Origin: Candidatus Woesearchaeota archaeon
GTDB lineage: Archaea; Nanobdellota; Nanobdellia; Pacearchaeales; GW2011-AR1
Direction of reading: 5' to 3'
Length of the DNA stretch: 64,000 nt
Assembly: GCA_964412025.1 (NCBI GenBank)
Contig: CAYPLY010000001.1
Location: 134,922-198,921, forward strand
Shown: positions 8,344 to 61,890 of the stretch, piece after piece
How positions within the stretch are numbered: the stretch's first letter is position 1
How the letters are laid out: the number at the start of each line of letters is the position of its first letter
Notes under the pieces: generated by a model
What the model was told of the DNA's origin: nothing
The model's database searches: none
What the model saw: the letters and a program-made list of their open reading frames with translations, nothing else
Position numbers and translations under genes: made by a program

Positions 8344-8346
8344 AAT

Positions 8347-8880: not shown

Positions 8881-10055
8881 CTTTTTAGATATTCCATTTC
8901 TTCTTCATCTAGTTTAAGTTCTTTTGATATCAGAGGATTTGAATTTATTATTTGTTTTATTATTGGAAACTCCCTCATCGCTCTTTTTTGTCCAAGGTGA
9001 GAATATTGTGCATATTTTTCTGCAATTGATTTCTTTTTGGCGGTTCTTTGATTATTCATCCACATCTTTAATATTCTTGTTGGTTTCTTGTACGTTGTAA
9101 AACCCGGTTTGGATTTTGTTTTTGAAGAAGAAATTCCATAACTTAAAAATATATTTTCATAAACTAAAAATCTCCAATATTGTTGTTTGTATATTCTTCC
9201 TCTAAATACATCGGTTTTGCTTAATAAGTCATATGCTCTTGCTAGTTCTACTCCCTTATATTCTTGTGGAATATTTTCTTCTACCCACAATATTATTTCA
9301 TCTATGGGGGTTTTTACAGAGTCGAATATTTTTAGGGTTTCATCACTTGCTTTTTCTTTAAATATATATTTTAATGCGTTAAATATATCTACCTCTTTGT
9401 TTCTCTCATCAAAGTCTATACCTGTCAAATCCTTTAGTTTTGATATTGTTTGTAAATCATTTATTGCAGCTCTCAAATCCCCTTTTGATTTTACTGCTAT
9501 TCTTGTAAGAACTTCATCTTCTATAAACCCTTTTTCTTTTTTTATTATATCTGCGAGTACATCTTTTATTATTCTGTAATCTATATTTCTTAATTGAATT
9601 AGTTCTGCCTGCTTCCTTAGAGGATTTAAAGATTTATCCCATATATCGTTTGCAGTGACTATCACAGGATATTTAGAAGATTCAAGTAGTTCAACAAATT
9701 CTCCAAGTCCTCCCCTATCTACAGTTGATATCCCATCAACTTCATCAACCAGGATTATTTTTCCCTGATTTATTAATGATTTTTGTTCCATAGCTGGTCT
9801 TAAAACCTCTTCCAATCTTTTTTTGTCTCTTAAATCTGAGGCGTTCAGTTCAAAAATCTCCGAATTTGTTTCTTTTCCAATAACATGCGCTATTGTGGTC
9901 TTACCGGTTCCAGGAGGCCCATGTAGAACTATTGCTTTTTTTGAACCTTTTTTATTGAAATCCTCTAAGAATTTTCTAACTTTATCTATTACCTCATTCT
10001 GCCCCTTTATATCTCTAAAATTCTTTGGCCTATATTTTTCAACCCAGGGGCTCAT
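8877..10055 (-). CDS. rfcL: Replication factor C large subunit
   Basis: PWVEKYRPK, GPPGTGKT, ELNASD, DEVD, GDLRAAINDLQ. Confidence 0.92.
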   Translation of the reverse strand: MSPWVEKYRPKNFRDIKGQNEVIDKVRKFLEDFNKKGSKKAIVLHGPPGTGKTTIAHVIGKETNSEIFELNASDLRDKKRLEEVLRPAMEQKSLINQGKIILVDEVDGISTVDRGGLGEFVELLESSKYPVIVTANDIWDKSLNPLRKQAELIQLRNIDYRIIKDVLADIIKKEKGFIEDEVLTRIAVKSKGDLRAAINDLQTISKLKDLTGIDFDERNKEVDIFNALKYIFKEKASDETLKIFDSVKTPIDEIILWVEENIPQEYKGVELARAYDLLSKTDVFRGRIYKQQYWRFLVYENIFLSYGISSSKTKSKPGFTTYKKPTRILKMWMNNQRTAKKKSIAEKYAQYSHLGQKRAMREFPIIKQIINSNPLISKELKLDEEEMEYLKS

Positions 10056-10056
10056 T

Positions 10057-10287
10057 TTAATTTAATTTTATTCCTCTTTTTAATTGTTTTACAATATCTA
10101 ATAAGTCAGATATTTCTCTTTTTGCTCTTGTAGGAGATATCTCTTCATTTAGTGCATCTAATGCAGTATTTCTTATCTTTGAAGAATAATAACTTATGTC
10201 TTTCAGATATTTAGTAGGAGTTAACTCATTTACTCTAGGTTTATAATTTAGTAATTTGTTAAAATATATCTTTTCTTCTATTTCCAT
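10057..10287 (-). CDS. Small hypothetical protein
   Basis: 76-aa ORF tightly packed between co-oriented genes. Confidence 0.55.
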   Translation of the reverse strand: MEIEEKIYFNKLLNYKPRVNELTPTKYLKDISYYSSKIRNTALDALNEEISPTRAKREISDLLDIVKQLKRGIKLN

Positions 10288-10288
10288 T

Positions 10289-10732
10289 TTAAATATAAGG
10301 GTTATAATTTTGTTTAATTAAATTTTGAATTGGTAGAAATAAAGGATCTCTTTTTCCATTAATAATATTGTCCCAGTGAGTATATTCCCAGCATTTACAT
10401 TTATCTTTTTCTTTTACCTCTGCAAATTTTCCAGATATCTGTTCTGCTTTTAAGAATAGAGTTATATAATGTTCTCCTTCTTTTTTAAAGAAGTCATTAG
10501 TTATTGCAATTGGTTCTTTACTTATATATGTTACATCTATATCTTCTAACAATCCTGTTTCTTCATATAATTCTCTTTTAGCACAATCAAAGAAAGATTC
10601 ATATTTTTCTAATTTTCCTCCGGGAAATGACCAAGTCCCATTCCCATGAGAATTTATCCTCTTTCCTAGAAGTATTAATCCTCCAGCCTTAACAATTGTT
10701 GCTATTCCTATCTTAGGGAACTCATTATTCAT
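10289..10732 (-). CDS. NUDIX hydrolase (MutT/NUDT15-like)
   Basis: Nudix box PGGKLEKYESFFDCAKRELYEETG; ILLGKR. Confidence 0.88.
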   Translation of the reverse strand: MNNEFPKIGIATIVKAGGLILLGKRINSHGNGTWSFPGGKLEKYESFFDCAKRELYEETGLLEDIDVTYISKEPIAITNDFFKKEGEHYITLFLKAEQISGKFAEVKEKDKCKCWEYTHWDNIINGKRDPLFLPIQNLIKQNYNPYI

Positions 10733-15744: not shown

Positions 15745-15897
15745 ATGCCTAAAAAGCAGATAATTGTAAAATTTGAGGGGTCTGAGATTCTTGAGAGAAA
15801 AGCTTCTAAGTTTGGAACTGGTGCTCATGTAATTATTCCTAAAGAATACATAAACAAAAAAGTAAAAATTATTATGGAGGATGAAGATGACAAGTAA
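15745..15897 (+). CDS. DUF2080-like (AbrB-like) small protein
   Basis: ERKASKFGTGAHVIIPKEYINKKVKII motif; ATG at 15745 preferred. Confidence 0.75.
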   Translation: MPKKQIIVKFEGSEILERKASKFGTGAHVIIPKEYINKKVKIIMEDEDDK

Positions 15898-18800
15898 AAA
15901 ATATTTTTTTGCTTTAATCAGCATAATTTTGATAACACTCTTATCCTATGAGGTTTTAGCAGGGACTAATGTTCCAGATTGTGGAATAACAATCAATATC
16001 TCAGGACAATATGAATTAAACGCGGGAATTTCTGGGACAGCAACTTGTCTAACAATTAATACAAGTAATATAGAACTAGATTGCAAAGGAAATACTATTT
16101 CTTATGGTTCAGATGGAGTTAATGGAAGAATTGGAATATCTGTTGCCCTTGGAACAGTTTATCTTGAAAATATCACAATAAAAAATTGCATAATTCAAGA
16201 CACAAATCCTGCTGGAACCACGGGGTATGGAATATATGCATTAAGAACATCTAATTCATATATAATTAACAATACAATTAATACAAGCGGAACTGCTACA
16301 AATCACGGGATTTATTTATCTACTGCAAGTCAAAATAATCTTCTTGAAAATAATACCATAAATGCTTATGGAAGCACTACAGGAAACTATGGGATTTATT
16401 TAATTTATCAATCAAATAATAACACAATTAGAAACAATGAAGTAAAGGCAACAGGAACAACAACAAGCTATGCACTCATGCTTTATAGCTCAGAATATAA
16501 TTTAATAGAAAACAACAATTTTTCAAGTTACACTCTTTTAACAACAGGAAATTCAGATATGAATGTAGTTTATTTATACTATGGTTCAAGATATAATATT
16601 TTAAGAAATAATTACATTTATTCAGATGCTGAAGCAAGAAATTACCATATTTATCTAAATTTAAATAATAATTATAATATCATTGCAAATAATACTATAA
16701 TTCCAAATGATGATGAAGGAACAAACCCTGGAATTTATATTCTTGGTTCTGATTACAATCTTGTAGAGAATAATACCATTAGAACAAATGGAACAACAGC
16801 CAATTATGGGGTTTGGTTAGGAGCATCTTCAACAGGAAATATGATTAATAAAAATAATATTATCACAAATGGAACTACAACCAACAATTACGGAATTTAT
16901 TTGGTAAGTGCACTTTACAATAATATAACAGAAAATCAGATCTCCTCAAATGGATTAACAACAGGTAATGCAGGAATAACTTTATCAAGTGCCCAAAGAA
17001 ATTACCTTGCAAGAAATAATATTTCTACAAGTGGGACAACAACAGGATATGGAATTTATTTGACTGGTTCTGATTATGACACAGTAGAAGATAATGATAT
17101 TTCTACATTTGGAACAAGCACTGCAAATGATGGAATCTATTTAATCTCTTCTACAAACAATAACATAATAAACAACAGAATAACTGCAAATAGCACCTCT
17201 TCTGGAAATATTGGTATTGCTTTATATACCTCAACAGGAAATTCTTATGTTTATAATAATACTATAAAAACTGATGGAACAACTACAAATTATGGTATTT
17301 TATTACAGACTGCAAATAATAATTCGATAGTAAATAATCAAATATCAACCAGTGGAACAACTACAACAAATCATGGAATTTATCTTTATATAAGTGCAAA
17401 TGCAAACAAAATCTACTATAATAATATCTCTACATATGGCACAACAACAAATCATGGGATTTCACTTAGCACAACTTCAGATGGAAATGAAATTGTTGGA
17501 AATTATATAATAGCTAATGGCTCAACAACAGCCTCCGCAACAACAACAAATAATTTTGGAATTGCTGCTGCTACAAGTTGTTATAATAATCTTATGGAAA
17601 ATAATACAATACTAAATTCCGGAGGAAGGTATAACTATGGTATATATATTTCAGTAGAATCTGGATATTCTACAATTAGAGGAAATAATATTACTACTGG
17701 AGGAAGTGGGGCCACAAATGCAGGAATTTATCTTTCAGAAAGCAGAAACAACCTTCTAGAAGAAAATATAATCTCTACTTCAGGTTCTGCTACAGATTAC
17801 GGTATTTATCTGTATTCTAATGCAAAATATAATTTTGTTAAGAAAAATAATATTACAACCTCAGGAAGTACTAATTCTTATGGAATTCTTCTTGATGCAG
17901 TAATTCCAAACTTCCCCCACAATAATTCTTTTCAAGAAAATAATTTTATTAGTATTGCTGGAACAGAATTTAGATTTGCTGATGCAGAAATAGATGAAAA
18001 TTATTTAATTAGCCAGATTATTGACAGTTACTTATTTACTGGAATTGGAAGCAAAATGATTGTTAGAAATGACTCTGCAGGAGAAATAAAATTCTTAGAT
18101 AGATTAACTGGTTCTGGAACAGGATTTAGTGATGATGTATACATTTTAGAGAATTATGCTTTTATTGATTCGAGTATCCCAGGATTAAACAAGTCAGCAG
18201 AGATAACCATTTATAATTTACCAACAACTTCAAATGAATTACAAATTTACAGGAATGGTATAATCTGCAGTGATTGTTTTAATTTAACTTCAATGCAAGC
18301 AGGAAATGTAACATTTAATGTAACACAAGGAGGAGGATACTCAATTAATTCCTCAAGTTCATCTCCTTTAATAGAATTAGATTTCCCTGAAAATGATTAT
18401 TTAACAAATCAGCAAAATATTAATTTTAATTTTACAGCTAGAGATGATTCTGTAGGAGATTTAAATTGTAGCATTTATATTGATTCTATTTTAAATCAAA
18501 CCAATTCAACAACTCAAAATAATACTCTAACTAATTTTGCTGCTAGTGGATTAACTGAAGGAAATCATAACTGGAATATTGAATGTTTTGATTCAGCAGG
18601 AAATAGAAATATTTCTGAAACAATAAATTTTACAATAACAATTTCACAATCATCCTCATTATTTAATTATCCAGAGAATAAATCTTATTTTAATAATTTA
18701 GACTTTATATTGTTAAATTATACTGTTTTAGATTTAGATTTAAAGATAATGACTGCTTGGATTTATGGGGATGAAATTCTTCTAAATACAACTTCAGGAT

Positions 18801-21800
18801 TAACTAATGGTTCATCTTTAGTTTACAATTGGACAAGTTTAGATTTAGGACAATATAACTGGTCTATAATAATCTGGAATGGAATAAAGAACTCTTCTAT
18901 TGAATATTCTTACTTTAATAATATTAATTTAACAATAAATTGTGAAGCAGGAGGAGATTATCTTGAAGATCCAACTGTTTTAATTCAAGGAAGAATAAAT
19001 GACAGTAGCGGGATAGTTTCATTAAGTTCACAAATAATTAATATTTCTATTTACAATGATTCCACAGAGGAAATAATCACTTCTTCAAATATAACCACAG
19101 AATCAAATGGTGTATTTAATAGTATATTTCCTGGATTGGAAATAGGAAATTACACTGTTTATACAAAAGTTAATTATCAAGGAATTGAAATAAATAGTTC
19201 AGACTCATTTAAAATTTCTCTTGGATATGAAGCAGGTTACAATGCAGGATTTATTGCTGGAAATGAATCAGGATATATTTCTGGATTTGATTATGGTAAT
19301 ATCACAGGATTTAATTTAGGAAATATCACAGGATTTATACTTGGAAACAATACTGGTTTCACATTAGGAAATACAACTGGATTTGTATACGGTAACCTCA
19401 CAGGATTTGTTTTAGGAAATTCAACTGGTTACATTTTAGGTAATGCAACTGGATTTACATTAGGAAATTATACCGGGTTTATATTAGGAAATCAAACAGG
19501 ATTTATAATAGGAAATATTTCAGGTTTCAATCTTGGTAATTCAACCGGTTTTACACTTGGAAATTATACTGGATTCATATTAGGAAACATTTCAGGATTC
19601 TACTTTGGAAACCAGACAGGTTATACTACAGGTTACAATGCAGGATTTATTGCTGGAAATGAATCAGGATATATTTCTGGATTTGATTATGGTAATATCA
19701 CAGGATTTAATTTAGGAAATATCACAGGATTTATACTTGGAAACAATACTGGTTTCACATTGGGCAACTCAACTGGTTATACCTTGGGATTTAACACAGG
19801 TAATATAACCGGATTTACTCTAGGTAATACTACCGGCTTTGTATACGGAAATAATACTGGTTATATTTTAGGATTTAATACAGGCAACTTAACAGGCTTC
19901 ACATTAGGAAACACAACTGGCTTCGTTCTTGGCAACTCTACAGGTTATGTTTTAGGAAATGCAACTGGCTTTGTATATGGTAACACAACAGGATTCATAT
20001 TAGGAAACACAACGGGATTTGTATATGGAAATATCACTGGATTTGCTTTGGGTAATTCAACAGGATTTACACTTGGAAATTTAACAGGTTATATTCTTGG
20101 AAATCAAACAGGTTATAACGCAGGATTTACAACAGGAAACACAACTGGATTTAATCTAGGAAATACTACAGGTTTCACATTGGGCAACTCAACTGGTTAT
20201 ACCTTGGGATTTAACACAGGTAATATAACCGGATTTACTCTAGGTAATACTACCGGCTTTGTATACGGAAATAATACTGGTTATATTTTAGGATTTAATA
20301 CAGGCAACTTAACAGGCTTCACATTAGGAAACACAACTGGCTTCGTTCTTGGCAACTCTACAGGTTATGTTTTAGGAAATGCAACTGGCTTTGTATATGG
20401 TAACACAACAGGATTCATATTAGGAAACACAACGGGATTTGTATATGGAAATATCACTGGATTTGCTTTGGGTAATTCAACAGGATTTACACTTGGAAAT
20501 TTAACAGGTTATATTCTTGGAAATCAAACAGGTTATAACGCAGGATTCAGCACAGGAAACACAACTGGATTTAATCTAGGAAATACTACAGGTTTCACAT
20601 ACGGAAATCTTTCAGGATTTGATCTAGGTAATGCCACGGGTTATACCTTGGGTTATAATGCTGGTGTTAATGTTAGCAATCGCACTTCAGCATCCCTAGT
20701 CTTGGATAAGATTGCAAGTTTGCAAAATATAACAAATGGAACTATTTCATATAATGTAACTTTAAGATTAACAAACAAAGGAGGAAGCAATTCAACAAAT
20801 GTTAACATAACAGATTTAGATTATGGTTCTAACTTTACAATTGGAAATTTAACAGCAGGAGAATCAATTACAAGAAGCTATCTTATTAATTTCACAAGAA
20901 ATATGACAACATATTCAAATGCAACATCAATTGCTCATGCATATGGTATTGATTCTTATTCATCTGGACAAATTTTGGCAAACTCTAGCTCAATGAATTT
21001 ACCTGTCCCATCAAATGAATCTGGGCAGCAATTAACTTTGATTAAGAATGTATTTTATATTAATCAAACATTCACAGATGTAAATTATACTGTTAGTTTT
21101 GAAGTTATTAATTCCGGAGGATCAGATTTAACAGGGATTACAATAATTGATGACGATTTGGGTATTTCTGATGTAATAAGCTTGAGTAAAACACAAAGTT
21201 ATACCTACTCGGGATCATTAATAATATCTAAGAATCAGGATAATAAAGAGCAAATATTTTCAATAGCAAGAGGAACTGTAAATGCTGTTATTTATTCTTC
21301 AAATCAAATAAAAGTTTTAATTCCAGGATATGGTGGAGGTCCAAATGATGTAAGCATTAATGCTCCTACATCTGTTTTTAATAACACCAATTTCAATGTG
21401 GATATAACTGTGAAGAATAAAAATAAAGACATAGGCCAGGACTTTGTTGTAACTTATTGGCTCTTGAGCAATGACGAGATTTCAATATATTCAACTGGAG
21501 CTCAAACTCTTTATGTTGGAGGAAATGATAATACCAATGCAACTACAATTGTATTCTTATCTCCTGCAATTAATGGAACATATAAAATAAGGGCAAATGT
21601 GAGCGGAACAGGAGTAAGTGTTCAAGCTACTGCTTTTTCAACAATTCTTGTTACGTATCCTTCAAATGAAACTGCAAATGAAACTCCAGTAAATCCTCCG
21701 CACGGAGGAGGTGGAGGTAGCAGAATAAGCTGTGTATATATCTGGGAGTGTGGTTCTTGGAGCCTATGTGCAGATGATGGAACTCAATCAAGAACATGTA

Positions 21801-22510
21801 CTAATACAGGAACCTGTACAGGAATAGAAGGAAAACCAGCAGAAAAAATGAATTGCTTAGAGGTTTCTTCTGATATTGTATTAAAATTAAGTCAATTAAA
21901 TTTAACTGAAAATCAAAGTTTAGAATTTAATATTGATTTGATTGAGAAGAAATCCTATGAAAACAAAGATATACAGATAACATATTCTATCTTTAATAAA
22001 ACAAATATAGAGGTATTCACTAAAACAGAGACTCGTTCACTTGAGACAAATATAAGTTATAAGGAGATTTTGGATGAATTAATGCTTACTCCAGGAGAAT
22101 ATACATTAAAAGTACATATATTCTATGGCAACTCTCAAAGTTCAGAAGAGGTACAATCATTTATTATAAAAGAAGAAGGTAAAAATAATATTGGAAGTAA
22201 ATTACTTCTTGAGTTAACACCCGAAACAAATTTTTTAACTTACTTGGCAATATTTGTAATCCTTATCTTATTAATATCGCTGTTTGTGATTATGAAAAAG
22301 AAGAGAGATGTTGATGAAGTTGACTTATTGATAAAAGAAGGAAAAAGGAATATTGACAATGAAAATTTTGATGAAGCATTAGATGTCTATCCTGTTCTTA
22401 AGAGCTTATATAAACACAAATATAAAGGGGACCCATCTGCTTATGAAAAGATTACTTCTTACTCTCAATTTATTTTAAAAAGTATTAAGGATAAATTAAA
22501 AAAAGACTAG
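15881..22510 (+). CDS. Giant (2,209 aa) membrane-anchored surface protein: signal peptide, parallel beta-helix (NosD/pectin-lyase-like) repeats, Ig-like segments, ~480-aa GxxxG repeat, TSP1-like Cys motif, C-terminal TM
   Basis: Repeats GIYL...N.I.NN.I; G[FY]xxGNxT repeats at residues ~1115-1595; CGSWSLC...QSRTC; hydrophobic LAIFVILILLISLFVIM followed by KKKR. Confidence 0.85.
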   Translation: MKMTSKKYFFALISIILITLLSYEVLAGTNVPDCGITINISGQYELNAGISGTATCLTINTSNIELDCKGNTISYGSDGVNGRIGISVALGTVYLENITIKNCIIQDTNPAGTTGYGIYALRTSNSYIINNTINTSGTATNHGIYLSTASQNNLLENNTINAYGSTTGNYGIYLIYQSNNNTIRNNEVKATGTTTSYALMLYSSEYNLIENNNFSSYTLLTTGNSDMNVVYLYYGSRYNILRNNYIYSDAEARNYHIYLNLNNNYNIIANNTIIPNDDEGTNPGIYILGSDYNLVENNTIRTNGTTANYGVWLGASSTGNMINKNNIITNGTTTNNYGIYLVSALYNNITENQISSNGLTTGNAGITLSSAQRNYLARNNISTSGTTTGYGIYLTGSDYDTVEDNDISTFGTSTANDGIYLISSTNNNIINNRITANSTSSGNIGIALYTSTGNSYVYNNTIKTDGTTTNYGILLQTANNNSIVNNQISTSGTTTTNHGIYLYISANANKIYYNNISTYGTTTNHGISLSTTSDGNEIVGNYIIANGSTTASATTTNNFGIAAATSCYNNLMENNTILNSGGRYNYGIYISVESGYSTIRGNNITTGGSGATNAGIYLSESRNNLLEENIISTSGSATDYGIYLYSNAKYNFVKKNNITTSGSTNSYGILLDAVIPNFPHNNSFQENNFISIAGTEFRFADAEIDENYLISQIIDSYLFTGIGSKMIVRNDSAGEIKFLDRLTGSGTGFSDDVYILENYAFIDSSIPGLNKSAEITIYNLPTTSNELQIYRNGIICSDCFNLTSMQAGNVTFNVTQGGGYSINSSSSSPLIELDFPENDYLTNQQNINFNFTARDDSVGDLNCSIYIDSILNQTNSTTQNNTLTNFAASGLTEGNHNWNIECFDSAGNRNISETINFTITISQSSSLFNYPENKSYFNNLDFILLNYTVLDLDLKIMTAWIYGDEILLNTTSGLTNGSSLVYNWTSLDLGQYNWSIIIWNGIKNSSIEYSYFNNINLTINCEAGGDYLEDPTVLIQGRINDSSGIVSLSSQIINISIYNDSTEEIITSSNITTESNGVFNSIFPGLEIGNYTVYTKVNYQGIEINSSDSFKISLGYEAGYNAGFIAGNESGYISGFDYGNITGFNLGNITGFILGNNTGFTLGNTTGFVYGNLTGFVLGNSTGYILGNATGFTLGNYTGFILGNQTGFIIGNISGFNLGNSTGFTLGNYTGFILGNISGFYFGNQTGYTTGYNAGFIAGNESGYISGFDYGNITGFNLGNITGFILGNNTGFTLGNSTGYTLGFNTGNITGFTLGNTTGFVYGNNTGYILGFNTGNLTGFTLGNTTGFVLGNSTGYVLGNATGFVYGNTTGFILGNTTGFVYGNITGFALGNSTGFTLGNLTGYILGNQTGYNAGFTTGNTTGFNLGNTTGFTLGNSTGYTLGFNTGNITGFTLGNTTGFVYGNNTGYILGFNTGNLTGFTLGNTTGFVLGNSTGYVLGNATGFVYGNTTGFILGNTTGFVYGNITGFALGNSTGFTLGNLTGYILGNQTGYNAGFSTGNTTGFNLGNTTGFTYGNLSGFDLGNATGYTLGYNAGVNVSNRTSASLVLDKIASLQNITNGTISYNVTLRLTNKGGSNSTNVNITDLDYGSNFTIGNLTAGESITRSYLINFTRNMTTYSNATSIAHAYGIDSYSSGQILANSSSMNLPVPSNESGQQLTLIKNVFYINQTFTDVNYTVSFEVINSGGSDLTGITIIDDDLGISDVISLSKTQSYTYSGSLIISKNQDNKEQIFSIARGTVNAVIYSSNQIKVLIPGYGGGPNDVSINAPTSVFNNTNFNVDITVKNKNKDIGQDFVVTYWLLSNDEISIYSTGAQTLYVGGNDNTNATTIVFLSPAINGTYKIRANVSGTGVSVQATAFSTILVTYPSNETANETPVNPPHGGGGGSRISCVYIWECGSWSLCADDGTQSRTCTNTGTCTGIEGKPAEKMNCLEVSSDIVLKLSQLNLTENQSLEFNIDLIEKKSYENKDIQITYSIFNKTNIEVFTKTETRSLETNISYKEILDELMLTPGEYTLKVHIFYGNSQSSEEVQSFIIKEEGKNNIGSKLLLELTPETNFLTYLAIFVILILLISLFVIMKKKRDVDEVDLLIKEGKRNIDNENFDEALDVYPVLKSLYKHKYKGDPSAYEKITSYSQFILKSIKDKLKKD
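19233..19761 (+). repeat. 133-bp identical direct repeat (19233-19365 and 19629-19761), offset 396 bp
   Basis: Read directly from the sequence. Confidence 0.85.
19751..20600 (+). repeat. 420-bp tandem duplication (unit 19751-20170, repeated from 20171)
   Basis: Lines 19801-20100 equal 20221-20520; only 3 mismatches seen near 20128/20548. Confidence 0.9.
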
Positions 22511-54225: not shown

Positions 54226-55053
54226 TTATAAGCTATCCAAGGGGGATTTTATCTTTGATAAATCTTTTGTGGATACATGTGTGTATACCTCAGTTGTTTT
54301 TAAATCAGAATGTCCTAGCAATTTTTGTATATGTCTTATATCTGTGCCCTGCTCTAATAAATGTGTTGCAAAACTATGCCTTAACATATGTGGAGTTGCT
54401 TTAATTCCTGCTTTTTTTCCAGCTTCATCCAAAACTTTCTGGACGGACTTTTTTGTGTATTTTCCATCACGTCCTTCAAAAACATATTCTGTGTGGAAAG
54501 TATTATTACTGTAGTATTTCAGTAAATCTAATTTTAATGCATCTGAAATAATAGTTACCCTATCCTTTTTCCCTTTTCCCTTTTTGACATTAAGAATATT
54601 TCTCTCAAAGTCAATATCTTTTCTCTTTAAATCAATTAGCTCCTGAAGCCTCAGTCCTGAAGAGTAAAGAAGTTTTATTATCAGTTTATGCTTTAAATTG
54701 TCTGTTAAATTAATCATTTCTTTAATTTTTTCTTTTGAGATAACTTTTGGAAGTTGTTTTTCTTTTTTCTTTATAGGAACTTCCTCAAATGAAAAAGATT
54801 TTCTTAATATCTCTCTGAAAAAGAAACTTATGGAGGCATACTGCAACCTTGAGGAGTTTATACTCAAATTTTGTGATAATAAATATAATTTAACACTGTC
54901 ATTTGATAGATTAAGTCTACTTTTGGAAAGAAAATCTAAAAATTTTCCTGTGTGATATACATAAGATTTGATTGTTTGGTTAGAAAATCCCTTTAAAATA
55001 CATGTTTCTTTTAGTTTTTTTAGATATTCTTCTTTATCTGAAGTATAATTCAT
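54226..55053 (-). CDS. Tyrosine recombinase, XerA/integron-integrase-like, 275 aa
   Basis: N-terminal GFSNQTIKSY SAM-like domain; catalytic R (GLRLQE), K (KGKKDR), HxxR (HMLRHSFATH), H (LGH), Y (EVYTHV). Confidence 0.95.
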   Translation of the reverse strand: MNYTSDKEEYLKKLKETCILKGFSNQTIKSYVYHTGKFLDFLSKSRLNLSNDSVKLYLLSQNLSINSSRLQYASISFFFREILRKSFSFEEVPIKKKEKQLPKVISKEKIKEMINLTDNLKHKLIIKLLYSSGLRLQELIDLKRKDIDFERNILNVKKGKGKKDRVTIISDALKLDLLKYYSNNTFHTEYVFEGRDGKYTKKSVQKVLDEAGKKAGIKATPHMLRHSFATHLLEQGTDIRHIQKLLGHSDLKTTEVYTHVSTKDLSKIKSPLDSL

Positions 55054-55093
55054 AAAGGAACTTTAACTTCATTTTATTTAAAGATATATGTGT

Positions 55094-55121
55094 AAGATAA
55101 TAACCTTTGGGTTATAATCTA
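55094..55121. promoter_or_regulatory. 11-6-11 inverted-repeat site AAGATAATAAC-CTTTGG-GTTATAATCTA (putative recombinase binding site)
   Basis: Arms 9/11 complementary; 41 bp upstream of the recombinase ATG. Confidence 0.6.
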
Positions 55122-55128
55122 CTTTTCA

Positions 55129-55156
55129 AGTAGATATAATAGATGTTATATTCAAT
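55129..55156 (+). other. dif/attI-like recombination junction AGTAGATATAA-TAGATG-TTATATTCAAT (left cassette boundary)
   Basis: TATAA-N6-TTATA core of Xer-type sites; GATGTTAT repeated at the right boundary (59070-59077). Confidence 0.75.
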
Positions 55157-55293
55157 TTTTGGATTACTCAAGACGGAAAAGAGAGAGGGGCTTAGTCCTT
55201 CGGACATTTTGCCTTTTACTTCGTAAAAGAATTTATAGGAAGGAGCGTCAAGATAGTCTTTTTCTACGAAAAAGAAATTTACTAGGTGGCGTC
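55156..55293 (-). repeat. Structured GACGC-hairpin repeat element after the M1 stop codon (inverted homolog of 58696-58849)
   Basis: Shared AGTAATCCAAAAA (13 bp), GCCCCTCTCTC (11 bp), GACGC units with T/A-rich hairpins, GTCC-TTCG-GAC. Confidence 0.75.
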
Positions 55294-56079
55294 TTAACAA
55301 TAATCCTTTAATTTAGTATTCTTTTTATGTTTACTTATTCTTTTATTCGCTAACTCGATGTATTCCTTATTATTATCTATGCCAATCCAATTTCGATTTA
55401 ATTGCATGGATGCCAAAGCAGTTGTTCCACTTCCCATAAAGGGGTCAATAACAATGTCTCCTTCATCTGTTGCCATCTCAATTAATCTTGTAAATAATTC
55501 TAAGGGTTTTTGAGTTGGATGTGCTGCTCTCCCATTTTCTCCTTTAATTCTTTCAGAACCTTGACAAACTGGAAACTCCCAAACATCTTTTAACTGCTTA
55601 CCTTGATTATACTTTTTCATATTGTTATAATTAAATTTCCATCCTTTCCCCTTTGCAAACCATGCAATAAATTCCGTAGAATGAGTTAATGTTCTTTTCG
55701 TAATACTTGGCATAGGATTTGTTTTTCTCCATGTTATCAGATTAATAAATTTGTATCCTTTATCTTTTAAAGCTACAATTACTTCTCCTATATTATGTAA
55801 AGAACCACAAACCATCATCGAACCATTTGGAGCAAGAATCTTATCAGCCTCATCAATCCATTTTTTTGTAAAGTCCATATAATCTTCATAAGAGAATTTA
55901 TCCCATTTTTCATTTACTTTGTAATATGCTCCACCTGTTTTATTATCTGGCAGATTTACTCCACCATTTGATGCATTATATGGTGGGTCAGTTAATACTA
56001 AATGAATTTTTCCTTTAGGAAAATCCCCCATTATCTTTATACAATCTCCTTCATGATTTTTATTTATTACATTATTCAT
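55294..56079 (-). CDS. N6A/N4C DNA methyltransferase, beta class (M1)
   Basis: TDPPY, HPTQKP, DPFMGSGTT in beta-class order. Confidence 0.93.
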   Translation of the reverse strand: MNNVINKNHEGDCIKIMGDFPKGKIHLVLTDPPYNASNGGVNLPDNKTGGAYYKVNEKWDKFSYEDYMDFTKKWIDEADKILAPNGSMMVCGSLHNIGEVIVALKDKGYKFINLITWRKTNPMPSITKRTLTHSTEFIAWFAKGKGWKFNYNNMKKYNQGKQLKDVWEFPVCQGSERIKGENGRAAHPTQKPLELFTRLIEMATDEGDIVIDPFMGSGTTALASMQLNRNWIGIDNNKEYIELANKRISKHKKNTKLKDYC

Positions 56080-57908
56080 GCTAAAATACCTTCTTTTTCA
56101 TATTTTTGAAGAATTGTATTAGATTTTCTCGCCCAATCATCAACATCTTTGGAATCTATTGCGACATTATGTAGTGTTAATAATAATTCTTTAAACTCGT
56201 TATGAGTAATTGGTTTATTTTCTAATTTTTTTATTAACACTCTTTTTAATATTTTTAAAAATTGAGTTATGCTCAGAGGAATTATTTTTTGTTTTTCTCC
56301 CTCATACTCATATTTGTTTGAAAAGCTAAATGTGTTAAAAGTATCTCTGTGAATTCTTGGGGCAATAAACAAACAAAAAGAATTATCATTATTTTTAATT
56401 TCAAAATCTCTTAAATGCCTCATAACTGGTTGTCCTTCATTAATCCATTGACTTCTACTTACTAACATAGTAACTTCACAAATCATATTGAAAGATTCAT
56501 AAACACATTCTATATCTGGAACATTGGCTGGTGCTGTAAAAGTTGGTCTGTTATCATCTCCTACAGGATAATTAGGCTGTATTTTCAAGGCGTCATTAAT
56601 CGCATGTAAGCATAACGTTGTTAGGTGTTCTAGTTCTATTGATTGGCTTTTATCACTTCCATGAATATTTTCAAGAGTTTTGATTACTTCCTTAAAATTA
56701 TCAGCATTAGCTAATTCTGTATGATTAATATACTCCTGCACTCTTCGCCTAAGAATTCTTAAATCTGCCATTATTGGTTTTAATTCATTAACTCTCAATG
56801 ATTCAATGTTTACTTCAAATAATTTTTTCTCTAAAGTTAATGGTTTGCTTAGAGATTTGTTTAATTCAAATATTTCTTTTCTAAGGTTCACAATAATATT
56901 TTTTAATTTGTCTTGTGTATCCCATGGATAGATTACATCAGAATCCATATAATCAAGGTATTCCTCAAGAGTTTTGAATTTCAAACCTTCACCATTACTA
57001 TATTCCAGAAGAGAGGTTATTTCAACATTTCTTCTCGGTTCTAAATCAATATAGAAACCACCACCACGAATATAAAAGAATCTTGTTATCTTAAAATATC
57101 GGATTGCATTATCACCATAATCTTTTAAATTATGAAAGTTTATATCGAGATGTTTTCCTTCGGGATCTTCAAAGAATTTTTTAGTTTTATCTGTAAAACA
57201 ATCTTTTTTTATTGCAGTTTGTTCTTTTTTGTCTTTACCTTTTAATTTATTTCTTAATGCAATAATTTCATTAACTGTTTTAGGGATGTCATCATAATTA
57301 ATTGTAGTTGGCACAAAATAACAAAATTCATGTTTAGAAATTCCGACAGGTTCATTCCCTAATTTTTTCCATTTCTTGTTTACTTCATTGATAATATGAA
57401 GAGTTGTAATAAATGGTCTTACATTAAAACCATTTTTTTCAGAAAACTCTTCATTATCTGGATTTGGTAAAGTCCATTTAAAGAAATATTCTAAGAAAAT
57501 TTCTCCCATGTCGAAATCTTTTTGTAAAAATTTCTTTCCAAAATTTGTGATGTATAGTTTACTTACTGTTTGTTTAGATACAACCAAACCCATTTTACTA
57601 AGCGGGGCAATAGATGTCCTTCCTCTTAGCCCAGGGTCATCTTTTAAAACAGTAGATTTTTCTTTCATATGTTCAAAAATTTCTTTTGCTTCTTTTTCTG
57701 ACATATCAGAAGGAGAATTATAATAGCCCGATAATTTTTCATTAAGGCCTGTTGGTTTATACAGCTTTCTTTTAATCAATGCTATTTGAAATTTTATCTG
57801 TTGATTCTCATTAAATTCAACACCCTCAAAATCTTTAAGAACTTCCAAAAACCCCCTAATTCTATCGGGATTTCTTACAGTAGTTGAAATTGACCATGCT
57901 CTTTTCAT
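56076..57908 (-). CDS. AlwI-family type IIS restriction endonuclease
   Basis: WSISTTVRNPDRI N-terminus, DYGDNAIRYF, APANVPDIE...EVT, EGQPVMRH, FIAP; flanked by two MTases. Confidence 0.8.
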   Translation of the reverse strand: MKRAWSISTTVRNPDRIRGFLEVLKDFEGVEFNENQQIKFQIALIKRKLYKPTGLNEKLSGYYNSPSDMSEKEAKEIFEHMKEKSTVLKDDPGLRGRTSIAPLSKMGLVVSKQTVSKLYITNFGKKFLQKDFDMGEIFLEYFFKWTLPNPDNEEFSEKNGFNVRPFITTLHIINEVNKKWKKLGNEPVGISKHEFCYFVPTTINYDDIPKTVNEIIALRNKLKGKDKKEQTAIKKDCFTDKTKKFFEDPEGKHLDINFHNLKDYGDNAIRYFKITRFFYIRGGGFYIDLEPRRNVEITSLLEYSNGEGLKFKTLEEYLDYMDSDVIYPWDTQDKLKNIIVNLRKEIFELNKSLSKPLTLEKKLFEVNIESLRVNELKPIMADLRILRRRVQEYINHTELANADNFKEVIKTLENIHGSDKSQSIELEHLTTLCLHAINDALKIQPNYPVGDDNRPTFTAPANVPDIECVYESFNMICEVTMLVSRSQWINEGQPVMRHLRDFEIKNNDNSFCLFIAPRIHRDTFNTFSFSNKYEYEGEKQKIIPLSITQFLKILKRVLIKKLENKPITHNEFKELLLTLHNVAIDSKDVDDWARKSNTILQKYEKEGILA

Positions 57909-57977
57909 AATATTTTACCCCTCATACTATCTTAAAAGCCAACATATTTAAATATTATGCGTTTTAGGGGTTATATT

Positions 57978-58697
57978 ATGGCAAAAAAGAATGTTGATTT
58001 GAAAAAAGGGGAATGTGTAAGTATTCTTAAGAAAATGCCAGACAATTCCGTAGATATGATATTTGCAGACCCTCCTTATAATCTTTCTGGAAAAAATCAT
58101 ATTACTTGTGTTAATGGAAGAAAAGTAAAATGTGATAAAGGTATTTGGGACATGGTCGCAGATATTGATAAATTTAATTATGATTGGATAAAAGAGTGTA
58201 TGCGTGTTCTAAAGGATGATGGAACTATCTGGATTTCAGGAACATTACATAACCATCCTTCTGTTGGCTTTTTACTTAAAAAAATGGGATACTGGATAAT
58301 AAATGATATTGTTTGGTTTAAACCAAATGCTCCCCCTCAATTACAACCTAATAGACTTGCTCCATCTACCGAGATGATTTGGTTAGCGAGTAAGACAAAA
58401 AAATATTATTTTGATTATAAAAAAGCAAAGGAAATTAATGACGGAAAACAAATGAGAAACCTTTGGACTATTAATGCTCAAAGACATATCACAAATCACC
58501 CTACTGAAAAGCCAGAACTTCTTTTAGAAAGGATAATTCTTCTTGGAAGTAAAGAAGGCGATGTTATCTTAGATCCTTTTATGGGTTCAGGAACAACAGG
58601 AGCAGTCGCTAAAAAGTTAAATAGAAGTTTTATAGGGATTGAACTTGACGATGAATTCTTTGAAATTGCAAAAGATAGAATAAATAATACTAAATGA
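57978..58697 (+). CDS. N6A/N4C DNA methyltransferase, beta class (M2)
   Basis: FADPPY, HPTEKP, DPFMGSGTT; ATG 57978. Confidence 0.93.
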   Translation: MAKKNVDLKKGECVSILKKMPDNSVDMIFADPPYNLSGKNHITCVNGRKVKCDKGIWDMVADIDKFNYDWIKECMRVLKDDGTIWISGTLHNHPSVGFLLKKMGYWIINDIVWFKPNAPPQLQPNRLAPSTEMIWLASKTKKYYFDYKKAKEINDGKQMRNLWTINAQRHITNHPTEKPELLLERIILLGSKEGDVILDPFMGSGTTGAVAKKLNRSFIGIELDDEFFEIAKDRINNTK

Positions 58698-58849
58698 CGC
58701 CCCTAAATGTTCTTTTTAGAAAAGAACCAAAACAAGACGCCCCTTCTATCTTCTTTTTTAGAAAAAAGAAGCAAAAAATCTGACGCCCCTCTCTCGTCCT
58801 TCGGACATATTCACTCGCCTTTGGCTCGAATTTATCAGTAATCCAAAAA
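58696..58849 (+). repeat. Three GACGCCCC units (58696, 58736, 58782) with intervening hairpins, after the M2 stop codon
   Basis: Hairpins GTTCTTTT/AAAAGAAC and CTTCTTTTT/AAAAAGAAG; TTCG-loop hairpin at 58796. Confidence 0.8.
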
Positions 58850-58909
58850 CTCTAAAATTTTGCCTTCGGCATCGTTGCACTAAATTTTAGGTCTTCCCGT
58901 TGGTCAGAC

Positions 58910-59080
58910 GAATATAACAGGGCTTAACCGACTACGAAACCTTGCAGGTTTCTCCGTCCAAATTTTGCCCCATCTCTGAAAAAATTCTCAGCTCTGTTTC
59001 GGTTTTGTGGGTTGCCTCAAAACCTCACGAGGAGAATTTTTTCGAGGGGTCAAAACTTCGTTTAAGCCCGATGTTATGTG
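58910..59080 (+). other. attC-like ssDNA hairpin recombination site (~170 nt)
   Basis: ATAAC/GTTAT outer stem, GGGCTTAA/TTAAGCCC, TTTTGCCCC/GGGG-T-CAAAA with an extrahelical T, GAAAAAATTCTC/GAGAATTTTTTC, GGTTTTG/CAAAACC. Confidence 0.78.
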
Positions 59081-59110
59081 CAATCTAGAAATATCTTGTT
59101 TATTCAATCA

Positions 59111-60388
59111 TCATTCTCCCTCAAACTTAATAAGGCTAAAGAAAGGATATTTTGAAATCTTTTCTTTTCCTTTTAATTCCGGAAGTTCCATAACAAACAT
59201 ACACCCAATAATTTGTCCCCCTACTTTTTCAATAAGGTTTACAGCTGCTTTAACTGTTCCACCTGTTGCAATTAAATCGTCAACAAGTAATACTTTTTGT
59301 CCTGGTTTTATAGAGTCTTTATGTATTTCAACTGCATCCTCTCCATACTCCAAAGAATAACTTTCTTTTACTGTTTCGTAGGGTAATTTTCCTGGCTTTC
59401 TTATTAAAGCTAATCCTGCATTTAACTTTTCAGCTAAAAGGCCTGCAATGATAAAACCCCTTGATTCAATTCCTGCAACTATATCTATTGGTATTTCATA
59501 ACATTTTTCGTAAAGTATTTCTGTAAGTTTTTTAAGAGATTCTCTATCTTGAAGGAGAGGAGTCACATCTTTAAACATAATTCCTTCTTTTGGAAAGTTT
59601 GGAATTGTACGTACTTTTTCTTTTAGTTTTTGAATTTCTTGTTCTCTTGAAAAAGAGTTTATCGCATCAAAAATAACTTTTTTGACACGTTCAGCATTTT
59701 CCTTCATATTATTTTTTATTGTTAACCAATCTACTGGTTCTTCATCTTCTTTCCAGCAGTCATAATCCGTTGACATTGCTATTGTTGCATATTGTACTTC
59801 TGCCTCGTTTGCAAGAATGGCTTCAGGAGATGTAGACATATTTATTATATCTCCTCCCCATTGTCTGAAAAGGTGGCTTTCTGCTTTGGTTGAGAATCTT
59901 GGCCCTTCTATTGTTATAACTGTTCCAGTTTTATGGTATGAGAATTTTAATTTTTCACAGCTTTCAGTTAGCTTTTTTCTTAATTCTTCCGAAAAAGGAT
60001 TTGCCATGGGAGTGTGGATTGGACCAAATTCAAACTTATCAAAAAAGGTTAGTTTTCTGTTTTTTGTAAAATCAATAAATTGATCTGGAATAATAAAATC
60101 TCCTCTCTTTATTTCTTCTCTAAGTGAGCCCGCGGCTGTTGTTGAGATTATAAATTTACAACCTTCATTTTTTAGTGCAAATATATTTGCACGATTGTTT
60201 ACTTCTGTTGGAGGGATTTCATGTTTTATCCCATGCCTTGAAATTATAAAGACATCTATGCTCCCTATCTTTCCAATTGTCAATGGAGAAGATGGTTTTC
60301 CAAAAGGGGTTTCTACTTCTTTTGTTTTGTAATCTGTAAGAATCTCTGGATTCTCAAGCCCAGAACCACCTATTATACCAATTTTCAT
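59111..60388 (-). CDS. Fused methylthioadenosine phosphorylase (MTAP) - adenine phosphoribosyltransferase (APRT)
   Basis: IGIIGGSG, RHG, IEGPRFSTKAES, TDYD, then PNFPKEGIMFKD, GIESRGF, RKPGKLP, LLVDDLIATGGT; ATG 60388. Confidence 0.92.
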   Translation of the reverse strand: MKIGIIGGSGLENPEILTDYKTKEVETPFGKPSSPLTIGKIGSIDVFIISRHGIKHEIPPTEVNNRANIFALKNEGCKFIISTTAAGSLREEIKRGDFIIPDQFIDFTKNRKLTFFDKFEFGPIHTPMANPFSEELRKKLTESCEKLKFSYHKTGTVITIEGPRFSTKAESHLFRQWGGDIINMSTSPEAILANEAEVQYATIAMSTDYDCWKEDEEPVDWLTIKNNMKENAERVKKVIFDAINSFSREQEIQKLKEKVRTIPNFPKEGIMFKDVTPLLQDRESLKKLTEILYEKCYEIPIDIVAGIESRGFIIAGLLAEKLNAGLALIRKPGKLPYETVKESYSLEYGEDAVEIHKDSIKPGQKVLLVDDLIATGGTVKAAVNLIEKVGGQIIGCMFVMELPELKGKEKISKYPFFSLIKFEGE

Positions 60389-60441
60389 AATAAATATTGG
60401 AGAGGAAAAGATTTTATAAGTATTTTTGTAATGAAAGATAC

Positions 60442-61890
60442 ATGTTAAACCCATCGAAAAATGAGGTTCGTAAACCTACAAAAACAATCTCAGGTATAAC
60501 TCCTGTAGCAGTTATGTTGCCTCCTAGAAAATGCAAGCATGGTAATTGTATTTATTGCCCTTCAATGGATGTCCCCCAAAGTTATACCCCAAAAAGTCCT
60601 GTTGTGTTAAGGGCTAAATCTCTGGATTATAATTCTTACAAACAGGTTGTTTCTCGTCTTAAGGCATTTGAAGTTATGAATCATCCAACTGAAAAAATTG
60701 AGTTGATAATTATGGGAGGAACTTTTTTGGAATATCCTGAAAAATTTCAGTACAAATTTATAAAAGGATTGTATGATGGATTAAATGGTAAGGTTTCTAA
60801 TAATCTGAGCGAGGCAAAAAAATTAAATGAAAATTCAAAACATAGATGTGTTGCGCTTTGTATTGAAACTAGGCCAGATGTTTGTTGTGAATTTATCTCA
60901 AGAATGAGAGAATTTGGATGTACAAGGGTGGAGTTGGGTGTGCAATTAATAGATGATAAAGTGTATAAATTTGTAAAAAGAGGACATCTAGTTAAAGATG
61001 TTGTTTTAGCTACAAAATGTTTGAGAGATGCAGGTTTTAAGATAGGTTATCATTTAATGCCTGGGCTTCCTGGAAGTAATTTAAAGAAAGATTTGGAATT
61101 ATTTAAGAAGATTTTTTCTGATGAAAGATTTAAACCCGATCAGATTAAAATTTATCCTTGTCAAGTATTGCCCAATTCTGAACTTGAAAAAATTTATTGG
61201 GAAGGAAAATACAAACCTTATACTCCGGAGGAGATTCAGAAACTTTTAGTTAGTATGTTAAAAGTTATTCCAAGATATTGTAGGGTAATGAGGATTATGA
61301 GAGAAATTCCATTGGAATATTTAATTGCTGGAAGCAAAGATATTGGAATAAGGAAAGATGTTGAAGATGAGTTAAGAAAAGAAAAAGTTAAATTGAAAGA
61401 AATTAGATATAGAGAGGTTGGTTTTAATAAAGAAGGAATGAATTTAGATTTGAAATTAAAAGCAACCCCTTATAAAGCTTCAGGAGGAAAAGAGTATTTT
61501 TTGGAGATTGTTAATAAAGATAATGTGCTTTTTGGGTTACTTCGTTTGAGAATAGTTAGCAGTAATCTCGTTAAGAGGGGTTCGAGGAGTAATAAGCTTG
61601 GTTCAACGGGTAATAAGCTGAAAACTGTTGTTACAGATAATAAAATAGGATTAGTAAGAGAACTGCATGTTTATGGGCAGAGTTTGAAATTGGGAGAACT
61701 TGGAAAAGTTGGTCAACACACTGGTTTGGGAAAATGGTTAATGGAGGAAGCTGAAAAAATTGCGAAAAAAGAAAAATGCTCTGAGATTAAAGTGATTTCA
61801 GGAGTGGGGGTTAGGGAGTATTACAGGAAGTTAGGTTATGAATTGGAGAAAGGAAAAGGTAAAGGAGAATATATGAGAAAGCTTTTATAG
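60442..61890 (+). CDS. elp3: Elp3 tRNA wobble-uridine acetyltransferase (radical SAM plus GNAT)
   Basis: CKHGNCIYCP, MGGTF, ETRPD, VELGVQ, RELHVYG, QHTGLG, ISGVGVREYY. Confidence 0.94.
   Translation: MLNPSKNEVRKPTKTISGITPVAVMLPPRKCKHGNCIYCPSMDVPQSYTPKSPVVLRAKSLDYNSYKQVVSRLKAFEVMNHPTEKIELIIMGGTFLEYPEKFQYKFIKGLYDGLNGKVSNNLSEAKKLNENSKHRCVALCIETRPDVCCEFISRMREFGCTRVELGVQLIDDKVYKFVKRGHLVKDVVLATKCLRDAGFKIGYHLMPGLPGSNLKKDLELFKKIFSDERFKPDQIKIYPCQVLPNSELEKIYWEGKYKPYTPEEIQKLLVSMLKVIPRYCRVMRIMREIPLEYLIAGSKDIGIRKDVEDELRKEKVKLKEIRYREVGFNKEGMNLDLKLKATPYKASGGKEYFLEIVNKDNVLFGLLRLRIVSSNLVKRGSRSNKLGSTGNKLKTVVTDNKIGLVRELHVYGQSLKLGELGKVGQHTGLGKWLMEEAEKIAKKEKCSEIKVISGVGVREYYRKLGYELEKGKGKGEYMRKLL

Follow-up and report, generated by a model that had tools for sequence, protein, structure and literature searches.

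The sequence at positions 55129-55156 of the analysed DNA lies between a recombinase gene and a restriction-modification (R-M) island, which raises the question of what kind of site this is and how the island came to be inserted there. The whole stretch of 64,000 nucleotides, referred to here as the window, is AT-rich and encodes archaeal-type ThrRS and Elp3. The data described below make it very probable that 55129-55156 is the core dif-type site of the adjacent XerA-family recombinase, acting as the equivalent of attI in an integron-like platform of Woesearchaeota and Pacearchaeota.

The comparison set comprised 57 loci from species-representative genomes, contigs obtained by exact-protein look-up and nine metagenome contigs. 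L numbers denote compared loci or contigs, and P0004, P0030 and P0069 are recombinase proteins common to several contigs. In motifs, a downward arrow marks the crossover point or a junction.

The docking site, the recombinase and the cassette

The features of the region are the following:
54226..55053, minus strand: XerA-family tyrosine recombinase, 275 aa, without the IntI-specific extra domain (profile and structure matches)
55075..55082, minus strand: probable TATA box (TTTAAATA) of the recombinase gene (same distance to the ATG in orthologous loci)
55100..55115, no strand: small hairpin ATAACC-TTTG-GGTTAT between site and promoter (orthologs have a hairpin of differing sequence in the same place)
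55112..55123, plus strand: additional, inverted copy of the left arm (TTATAATCTACT), at a distance of 5 nt from it
55129..55139, plus strand: left (recombinase-proximal) arm AGTAGATATAA (AGTAGAYnTAA kept in about 50 loci)
55140..55145, plus strand: central region TAGATG, 6 bp (ortholog conservation stops right after GTT)
55146..55156, plus strand: right arm TTATATTCAAT, from the inserted cassette (R' end; complementary to GAATATAAC at 58910-58918)
55146..59073, no strand: gene cassette of 3,928 bp with an AlwI-family type IIS R-M system, bounded by two GATG↓TT junctions
55157..55293, minus strand: proximal non-coding module with small GAA/GTA-loop hairpins (94% identity over 156 nt in L109)
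55294..56079, minus strand: N6/N4 DNA methyltransferase M1 (PF01555, 3.9e-62)
56076..57908, minus strand: AlwI-family restriction endonuclease (PF09491, 5.9e-87)
57957..58697, plus strand: N6/N4 DNA methyltransferase M2 (PF01555, 1.3e-58)
58910..59075, minus strand: attC-like imperfect hairpin of about 160 nt (DNA fold -39.6 kcal/mol, z = -6.5)
59074..59084, plus strand: distal right arm TTATGTGCAAT (analogy with the empty and occupied pair L081/L080)
59111..60454, minus strand: MTAP-APRT fusion gene, to the right of the distal repeat (TIGR01694 and APRT models)

Direct reading of 55129-55156 gave AGTAGATATAA-TAGATG-TTATATTCAAT, an 11-6-11 layout, located 76 bp upstream of the divergent recombinase gene. 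The full 28-mer occurs once in the 64-kb window, even when three mismatches are allowed. The sequence GATGTTATnTnCAAT has one further copy at 59070-59084 (GATGTTATGTGCAAT), and the two copies enclose the 3.9-kb R-M cassette. The 15-nt pattern GATGTTATNTNCAAT was found exactly twice in the window, at 55142 and 59070 and both times on the plus strand, and gave no match in 100 dinucleotide shuffles.

In E. coli dif the XerD arm is TTATGTTAAAT, which agrees with TTATGTGCAAT at 9 of 11 positions. The first-pass annotation had reported this match, together with the bases of both junctions (55129-55156 and 59074-59084), and was right on each count. It had also pointed to a likeness to dif of Thermococcales, which is borne out by the P. 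abyssi dif assayed for binding and recombination, ATTGGATATAA-TCGGCC-TTATATCTAAA (PMC2958812). In reverse complement the window site reads ATTGAATATAA-CATCTA-TTATATCTACT, and its arms are identical to those of P. abyssi dif at 19 of 22 positions, with the same asymmetry between the arms; this was the top score among all 28-mers of the window on either strand (runner-up 17). The left arm AGTAGATATAA agrees at 9 of 11 positions (against the reverse complement of TTATATCTAAA), and the reconstructed empty site, in which the cassette is removed, scores 18/22. Since 2 of 50 mononucleotide shuffles also reached 19 or more, the dif resemblance by itself is only modestly above chance, and it gains significance from the 76-bp spacing to the start of a XerA-family gene and from the comparative data. 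XerA cuts at the spacer borders (PMC3646895); the crossover in the present site was placed in G55145↓T55146 T55147, from the end of ortholog conservation. The GATG of the central region is also found in the cassette hairpin end in the window's lineage.

Between the site and the recombinase gene, the arrangement TTAnATCTACT-N5-AGTAGATnTAA is kept in most orthologs, and the inverted extra arm copy is possibly an accessory binding site. The small hairpin is replaced in an ortholog by, for example, GAAACTC-n3-GAGTTTC. The TATA box is present as TTTAAATA or TTTATATA in orthologous loci and is probably the promoter element of the recombinase gene. A second dif-like reading at 55091-55123 (TAAGATAATAA-N8-TTATAATCTAC) was dropped, as orthologs do not keep the sequence.

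The recombinase contains the Pfam domains Phage_integrase and SAM-like N. It passed the equivalog cut-off of the NCBIfam model recomb_XerA_Arch (NF040815) by a small margin (224.9 bits, cut-off 220) and scored below the cut-offs of the integron integrase model TIGR02249 (203.6, cut-off 265) and of NF011946 (120.7, cut-off 435). The best PDB match was P. abyssi XerA (4a8e, 1e-47), which aligned in a single unbroken stretch. With VchIntIA (2a3v) the alignment was split, with query residues 173-204 opposite residues 173-247 of IntI4, which has about 43 extra residues, indicating that the IntI-specific additional domain is absent. This is the domain that integron integrases reportedly need for hairpin recombination (PMC7790495), and its absence, with extrahelical bases to be handled, counts against the explanation favoured here. 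The C-terminal KSPLDS aligns with the C-terminus of IntI4. The nearest relatives are found in MAGs of Woesearchaeota, Pacearchaeota and 'Nanoarchaeota'; across many MAGs its gene is conserved at 70-95%, and downstream synteny is stable among close relatives only. An exact look-up of the window's own protein returned no matching contig. A phage integrase reading was dropped, since no relative of the recombinase was found in the collection of viral contigs.

The window cassette carries three genes on two strands, all of them R-M genes, and no recombinase. A complete site is present at its left junction and the right arm alone at its distal junction. The distal hairpin has the format AAC-ATC-[stem]…[stem']-T-GTT, where R'' is GAATATAAC at 58910-58918 and the GTT of R' lies at 59073-59075. 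GAATATAAC pairs with GTTATATTC at 55145-55153, at the other end of the cassette, and not with the adjacent GTTATGTGC. In the window no further attC-like hairpin was detected past the MTAP-APRT gene on either strand, and the array therefore appears to end at this gene. An Rfam scan of the window found three tRNAs only, so the hairpins are not a catalogued RNA.

Modules related to 55157..55293 occur at the proximal ends of other cassettes. The fold of this module as a whole, and that of a conserved 170-nt element, were not better than those of shuffled sequences, and for this reason neither the cassette left end nor the 170-nt element was called a recombination hairpin. These conserved non-coding modules at cassette ends fall outside the explanation favoured here.

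Fixed and exchangeable halves in related loci

About 50 orthologous loci of Woesearchaeota and Pacearchaeota keep the recombinase-side half of the site, …AGTAGAYnTAA-TAGATG-TT. In the sense of the recombinase gene this half reads AAC-AT(C)TATTAnATCTACT-N5-AGTAGATnTAA and lies about 76-95 nt upstream of the recombinase start, while beyond GTT (5' of AAC) the sequences are unrelated between loci. In metagenomes a degenerate DNA pattern retrieved nine loci, and a scan with the exact 36-mer gave no match. Five contigs start at or no more than 1 nt from AAC, and 11 start within 60 nt, as expected if assemblies break where strains differ.

Identical recombinases were found next to different neighbours, namely at least four variants for P0004, two for P0030 and three for P0069. 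Most of the exchangeable arms read ATTnnnnnnAAC (22 of 28 distinct arms, by our own count), and these retain ATT(G) on the outer and (T)AA on the inner side, in common with P. abyssi dif; some right arms have no conserved ATT, such as AAGCCAAGCAAC and GTCAGCCTGAAC. Alignment of these loci thus establishes that the recombinase-side arm and the central region are fixed in the chromosome and that everything beyond G↓TT is exchangeable.

The clearest alleles were obtained for the P0030 lineage. L081 and L086 have empty alleles, …ATTTCTACTAAC↓ACCTATTAAGTCTACT…, and in L080 a cassette with an MjaI R-M system is inserted exactly at this point. Its distal junction is ATTTCTACTAAC↓GTTTGCGGATATGAG… and its proximal junction …ATTGCGTTGAAC↓ACCTATTAAGTCTACT; the old arm ATTTCTACTAAC is now distal, and the new arm beside ACCTATTAAGTCTACT, ATTGCGTTGAAC, was supplied by the cassette. 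A second cassette, with an ORF of 168 aa, is precisely present in L080 and L081 and absent from L086 and L088, and all four combinations of presence and absence of the two cassettes are found among L080, L081, L086 and L088. At the level of alleles, these comparisons establish that the cassettes are discrete hairpin-ended units, individually present or absent in otherwise identical backgrounds.

Homologs of the window cassette (85-90% nucleotide identity) with the same ends are present in other arrays, internally in L109 and in L105, and relatives of the AlwI-family endonuclease (80-94% identical) lie on short contigs. The L109 cassette has 89.5% nucleotide identity to that of the window and an extra GmrSD gene, and is located inside an array. 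It shares the end TTATATTCAAT; its distal side reads ATTGCACATAAC↓ATC-hairpin…GTTATATTC, and its proximal end …ATTGAATATAAC joins the hairpin of another cassette and not a docking site. The arm ATTGCACATAAC that borders it is also the docking-site arm in L007, and L105 has a window-type cassette with a different neighbour arm. As judged from these homologs, the window cassette itself is mobile.

These findings bear out three further claims of the first-pass annotation. Cassettes had been proposed to integrate into the site, and about 50 loci diverge past GTT while identical recombinases have differing cassettes. The empty site reconstructed by removing the cassette is mirrored by the natural empty (L081/L086) and occupied (L080) alleles. 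The site was said to be regenerated at the left junction, and a full 11-6-11 site, dif-like by comparison with the tested archaeal dif, is found on the recombinase side. Among the loci compared, no exact empty allele of the window, in which the MTAP-APRT gene would adjoin the site, was detected, and the reconstruction therefore rests on the analogous L080/L081 pair. By this analogy, TTATGTGCAAT would be the right arm of the docking site before the window cassette entered.

Cassette hairpins and a proposed route of integration

Hairpins were located with a structure-anchored scan (AAC, 2-5 nt, a stem with at least 10/11 pairs, interior, partner, 0-3 nt and GTT, over a span of 40-280 nt), which replaced matching of reverse-complement partners, a procedure too noisy in AT-rich DNA. 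On the recombinase-sense strand, the 105.5 kb scanned upstream of recombinases yielded 32 hairpins, whereas the 253.8 kb downstream yielded none. When both strands were scanned, the true hairpins were on the recombinase-sense strand, and all junction sites were direct and in the same orientation. An inversion (phase-variation) switch for the R-M system was rejected, since the sites are all direct repeats.

The common form of the hairpins is ATTnnnnnnAAC-ATC-G(C/G)G(A/C)TTAAnnGAAGT…-T-GTTnnnnnn, with a length of 75-165 nt. Individual hairpins folded much more stably than shuffled sequences, with z of -4.7 to -6.5. The consensus fold of seven homologs has a TAACA/TGTTA base, a 2-nt bulge, an 11-bp stem and an inner stem, and 14 of its 31 pairs show compensatory changes on both sides. 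Arrays contain up to five or six cassettes (five hairpins and the docking site in L025, four hairpins in L080).

For 22 cassettes the bases after the far-side GTT were compared with the bases before AAC at the next recombinase-ward junction. Complementarity to the cassette's own end averaged 5.4/8, compared with 2.7/8 for the neighbour arm and 2.3/8 for non-own ends, and none of 10,000 permutations reached the observed total. Own ends typically have six contiguous complementary bases, giving a 9-bp box with AAC/GTT; complementarity was weak in a few cassettes (L090 and L080-7661). Own stem halves paired at 10.4/11 positions and non-own halves at 5.5/11, with several pair types per position. 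Complementarity between own ends is expected of a circular cassette that is opened within its hairpin at G↓TT.

The cassettes are 0.2-3.9 kb long, with zero to three cargo genes and no replication genes, and they may be multi-gene, with ORFs in both orientations and signals of their own. The cargo includes GNAT acetyltransferases, SAM methyltransferases, an aldehyde dehydrogenase, an NTPase, an HD protein, a C39-like peptidase, the AlwI and MjaI R-M systems, a class-I tRNA synthetase and many proteins without a family. Such a cargo of GNATs, methyltransferases, R-M systems and many unknowns is typical of cassette arrays. Given the attC-like hairpins and the arrays, the locus is better called an integron-like platform built on a Xer/dif module.

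A mechanism can be proposed, in which the single-strand folding, the strand used, the phosphodiester cleaved and the replicative resolution are inferred from known systems. If the route resembles that of integrons and CTX phage, the excised cassette would be circular, with the predicted junction …TTTAAGCCCGATG↓TTATATTCAATTTTTGG… in the case of the window cassette, and the predicted empty allele of the window site would be AGTAGATATAATAGATG↓TTATGTGCAATCTAGAAAT. The recombinase-sense strand, 5'-ATTnnnnnnAA↓C-ATC…, would fold into a mimic of the docking site, composed of the right arm, CA with a bulged TC, a paired spacer of 4 bp and an inner arm starting with TTA. Recombinase bound to the right arm would cleave 5'-…TAA↓C, with the standard polarity at the spacer border as mapped for XerA (PMC3646895), and only this one strand would be exchanged with the double-stranded docking site.

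Spacer agreement is confined to the bases beside the cleavage point, namely CATC in the window's lineage and the C of AAC in the P0030 lineage, where docking site and hairpin end have only AAC in common. Because the central-region homology is limited in this way, a second exchange would be disfavoured. Replication would then resolve the junction, as PMC3458562 and PMC3442271 describe for integrons and CTX phage. The recombinase side would thereby gain a new complete 28-bp site whose right arm derives from the cassette, and the previous right arm would end up at the distal junction (59074-59084).

Alternative readings and known systems

The reading that 55129-55156 is the true chromosomal dif, that the recombinase is the housekeeping XerA and that the cassettes are IMEX-like hitch-hikers stacked at dif is a serious possibility, although we judge it somewhat improbable. 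It is compatible with the explanation favoured here, to which it adds a second function. The equivalog cut-off for XerA was passed, P. abyssi XerA is the nearest protein of solved structure, the arms agree at 19/22 positions with a dif which XerA recombines in vitro, the gene is 70-95% conserved in many MAGs and its downstream synteny holds among close relatives, and no relative was found in viral contigs. Moreover, xerA/dif modules exist in some archaea, XerS/difSL is also a module of gene and site, and element stacking at dif is known in Vibrio (PMC5357621). Against these points, no skew inversion was seen at the site. GC skew, which the first-pass annotation had proposed as a check, and GTTG/GTTC counts do not invert there; in the window, L025 and L081 the left and right flanks agree in sign, and across 24 loci the sign differs from one to another without consistent polarity. 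This evidence is weak, as the flanks are short and the skew motif to be expected in DPANN is uncertain. The right arm is swapped at each insertion, sometimes for one lacking ATT (AAGCCAAGCAAC, GTCAGCCTGAAC), and both arm replacement and missing ATT would weaken a reaction between two double-stranded sites. The XerA margin is also small, with integron integrase models scoring almost as high. In Thermococcales, dif lies away from xerA, at a skew inversion, with no cassettes reported, whereas the present site adjoins the gene, lacks a skew inversion and serves as a hot spot for cassettes. The two systems have in common the enzyme family, the 11-6-11 layout, the 19/22 arm identity and the asymmetry of ATTGnATATAA and nnTAGATATAA (PMC2958812, PMC3646895).

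Ordinary double-strand recombination between dif-like sites, as in Acinetobacter pdif modules or VGJ/TLC-type IMEX, with the hairpin potential being incidental, is an unlikely account of the same data. P. abyssi XerA does recombine double-stranded dif without partners and cuts both strands (PMC2958812, PMC3646895), and every junction has an arm and a spacer that could serve as a double-stranded site. The cassette-specific complementarity of ends and the covariation in stems, however, are hard to explain without selection for pairing; in addition, the inner arm of the hairpin differs from the chromosomal left arm past TTA, and spacer homology exists on one side only. The junction sites are all direct and in one orientation, unlike the alternating, inverted Xer sites of Acinetobacter pdif modules. 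That the repeat arose by chance, and that the R-M island came by an unrelated route such as transposition or homologous recombination, is scarcely credible. The DNA is AT-rich and the dif resemblance alone reached 19/22 in 2/50 shuffles, but the flanking repeat was matched in none of 100 shuffles, and dozens of loci, as well as presence/absence alleles, follow the same junction logic.

A canonical integron, i.e. an IntI-family integrase with attI and attC as reported for Archaea, would have the same geometry and is quite improbable. As in bacterial integrons (IntI1/VchIntIA), a divergent tyrosine recombinase gene flanks the docking site, strands cross over at G↓TT (AA↓C in the complementary strand), with GTT as the breakpoint in about 50 loci, cassettes terminate in imperfect hairpins with an …AAC/GTT… base completed by the cassette's other end, and hairpin arrays of one orientation gain and lose single cassettes with GNAT and unknown cargo. 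The alignment of KSPLDS with the IntI4 C-terminus can be added. Furthermore, Ghaly et al. 2022 (PMC9668308) reported attC clusters without IntI in MAGs of Woesearchaeales and Pacearchaeales, one of them being the L004 MAG. On the other hand, the enzyme is a XerA-type protein of 275 aa without the IntI-specific domain and scores below the cut-offs of IntI models, and an extra inverted arm accompanies the docking site, itself a dif-type palindrome of 28 bp. At 75-165 nt the hairpins are longer, their spacer is paired and their 2-nt bulge is fixed. The cassettes can be multi-gene and in either orientation, unlike the mostly single, promoterless ORFs of one orientation, driven by Pc, in bacterial integrons, and the hosts are DPANN archaea.

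In the survey by Ghaly et al. 2022 (PMC9668308), six IntIs were described in archaeal integrons, all with the IntI-specific domain, and most arrays lacked an integrase. That study, like the present one, concerns archaeal cassette arrays. The survey accepted only IntI with the specific domain and made no link to XerA or to a dif-like docking site; its example of a Nanoarchaeota attC (Data S9) has 59 nt and shows no resemblance to the present hairpins, and a search of its supplementary data for the hairpin-type motif gave no match.

The integron-like platform with a dif-type docking site also shares features with CTX-phage-type IMEX at Vibrio dif1. As described in PMC3442271, such elements have no integrase of their own, use a folded single-strand hairpin as a mimic of dif, undergo one strand exchange set by one-sided spacer homology, regenerate dif on one side and stack at the site. 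The present cassettes differ in being small and non-replicating and not phages, in depending on one recombinase rather than on XerC and XerD, and in forming arrays that show integron-style excision of cassettes. IMEX are replicons (phage, plasmid or genomic island with maintenance functions), and the cassettes have no replication genes. In XerS/difSL, XerH/difH and Legionella dif with LME-1 the recombinase gene is likewise linked to its site (PMC5357621), and in Legionellales the dimer-resolution system came to light through a mobile element that had integrated (PMC9765430). These systems have single large elements at most, with no hairpin-ended arrays described. In full-text searches of the literature no description was found of XerA-linked cassette arrays or of such a dif-like docking site. 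The system is thus integron-like in operation and Xer/dif-like in its enzyme and site.

Integron integrases are thought to descend from Xer-like ancestors. They reportedly gained hairpin (single-strand) recombination through an added helix, according to PMC4792948 and PMC7790495. It can be suggested only tentatively, and we consider it doubtful on balance, that a XerA-type enzyme without the extra IntI domain runs a full integron-style system at the chromosome's own dif. If this is true, a living intermediate between Xer/dif and integrons would be widespread among Woesearchaeota and Pacearchaeota, and it would provide the missing integrase for at least some of the integrase-less archaeal attC clusters. 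A XerA-type enzyme without the added helix that serves hairpin cassettes at a dif-type site would make the Xer-to-integron transition directly testable, and would explain where some of the 'integrase-less' clusters belong. For small DPANN genomes, the platform would be a main hot spot of gene flux, exchanging defence systems, acetyltransferases and even a tRNA synthetase, and would explain the frequent breaks of DPANN assemblies beside the recombinase gene.

Non-coding elements at the docking site and at cassette ends

In the window (55100-55123) and in orthologous loci, the core site is accompanied, at a distance of 5 nt, by an additional, inverted copy of the left arm (the recombinase-proximal arm), which is adjoined by a hairpin whose sequence varies by lineage while its pairing is maintained. 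Both are located between the docking site and the TATA box of the recombinase gene, and may serve as accessory binding sites or in regulation.

A conserved element of ~170 nt directly abuts the docking site or another junction in several related DPANN contigs:

L027 1262-1420
L005 9740-9907
L014
L025 7880-8045 and 9750-9906
L069/L070

It holds a head-to-head palindrome of two half sites resembling hairpin ends, CTTCGTTTAA-TCAGCGATG-TTATGCGACAAT / ATTTCGCAT-TGGAGCG-TTAAACGAAG. The computed overall fold of the element was not significant. The element could be a cassette without an ORF, or a site of another kind.

Across loci, many cassettes carry a conserved non-coding module at the end opposite their hairpin:

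window 55157-55293
L109 6718-6873
proximal cassette ends of L019, L008, L011, L017 and L080

The module contains small GC-closed hairpins with GAA or GTA loops (e.g. GTCCGAAGGAC, CTTTTACGAAGTAAAAG) and an ACTATCT spacer, and many copies carry GGTCGGTTAAGAGAAGT and GGGTGGG motifs. DNA mini-hairpins with a C-GAA-G loop are very stable.

Possibly decaying platforms, a separate insertion, and other genes in the window

The recombinase genes of L027 (1514-2331) and L023 (648-1471) appeared disrupted, each being recovered as two tblastn pieces, and in L027 the site beside the gene was degenerate as well (AACAGGTATTAAATGAACT). These two loci may be decaying platforms. In L094, one contig of the lineage sharing recombinase P0069, a DDE transposase and a type IIG-like R-M/PD-(D/E)XK block were found downstream of the recombinase (5343-10441). 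L095 and L096, of the same lineage, lack this block; it represents an insertion polymorphism of its own, with no connection to the docking site.

Elsewhere in the window, an ORF of 2,209 aa (15881-22510), probably encoding a large repetitive surface protein, has an internal repeat with a spacing of 420 bp (identical 18-mers at 19849 and 20269). The ORF at 59111-60454 encodes a fusion of methylthioadenosine phosphorylase with adenine phosphoribosyltransferase.

Cassette cargo

A hairpin-bounded cassette in L080 (6250-7661) and L081 (8497-9907) encodes a 377-aa class-I aminoacyl-tRNA synthetase (PF00579), cargo that is atypical of cassette arrays.

Relatives of the AlwI-type R-M cassette of the window hold additional defence genes as part of the same unit:

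L101-L103, after the methyltransferase gene M1
L109 4639-6720

One such relative carries two ThsB-TIR proteins, and another a GmrSD endonuclease. The cassette thus expands in the manner of a small defence island.
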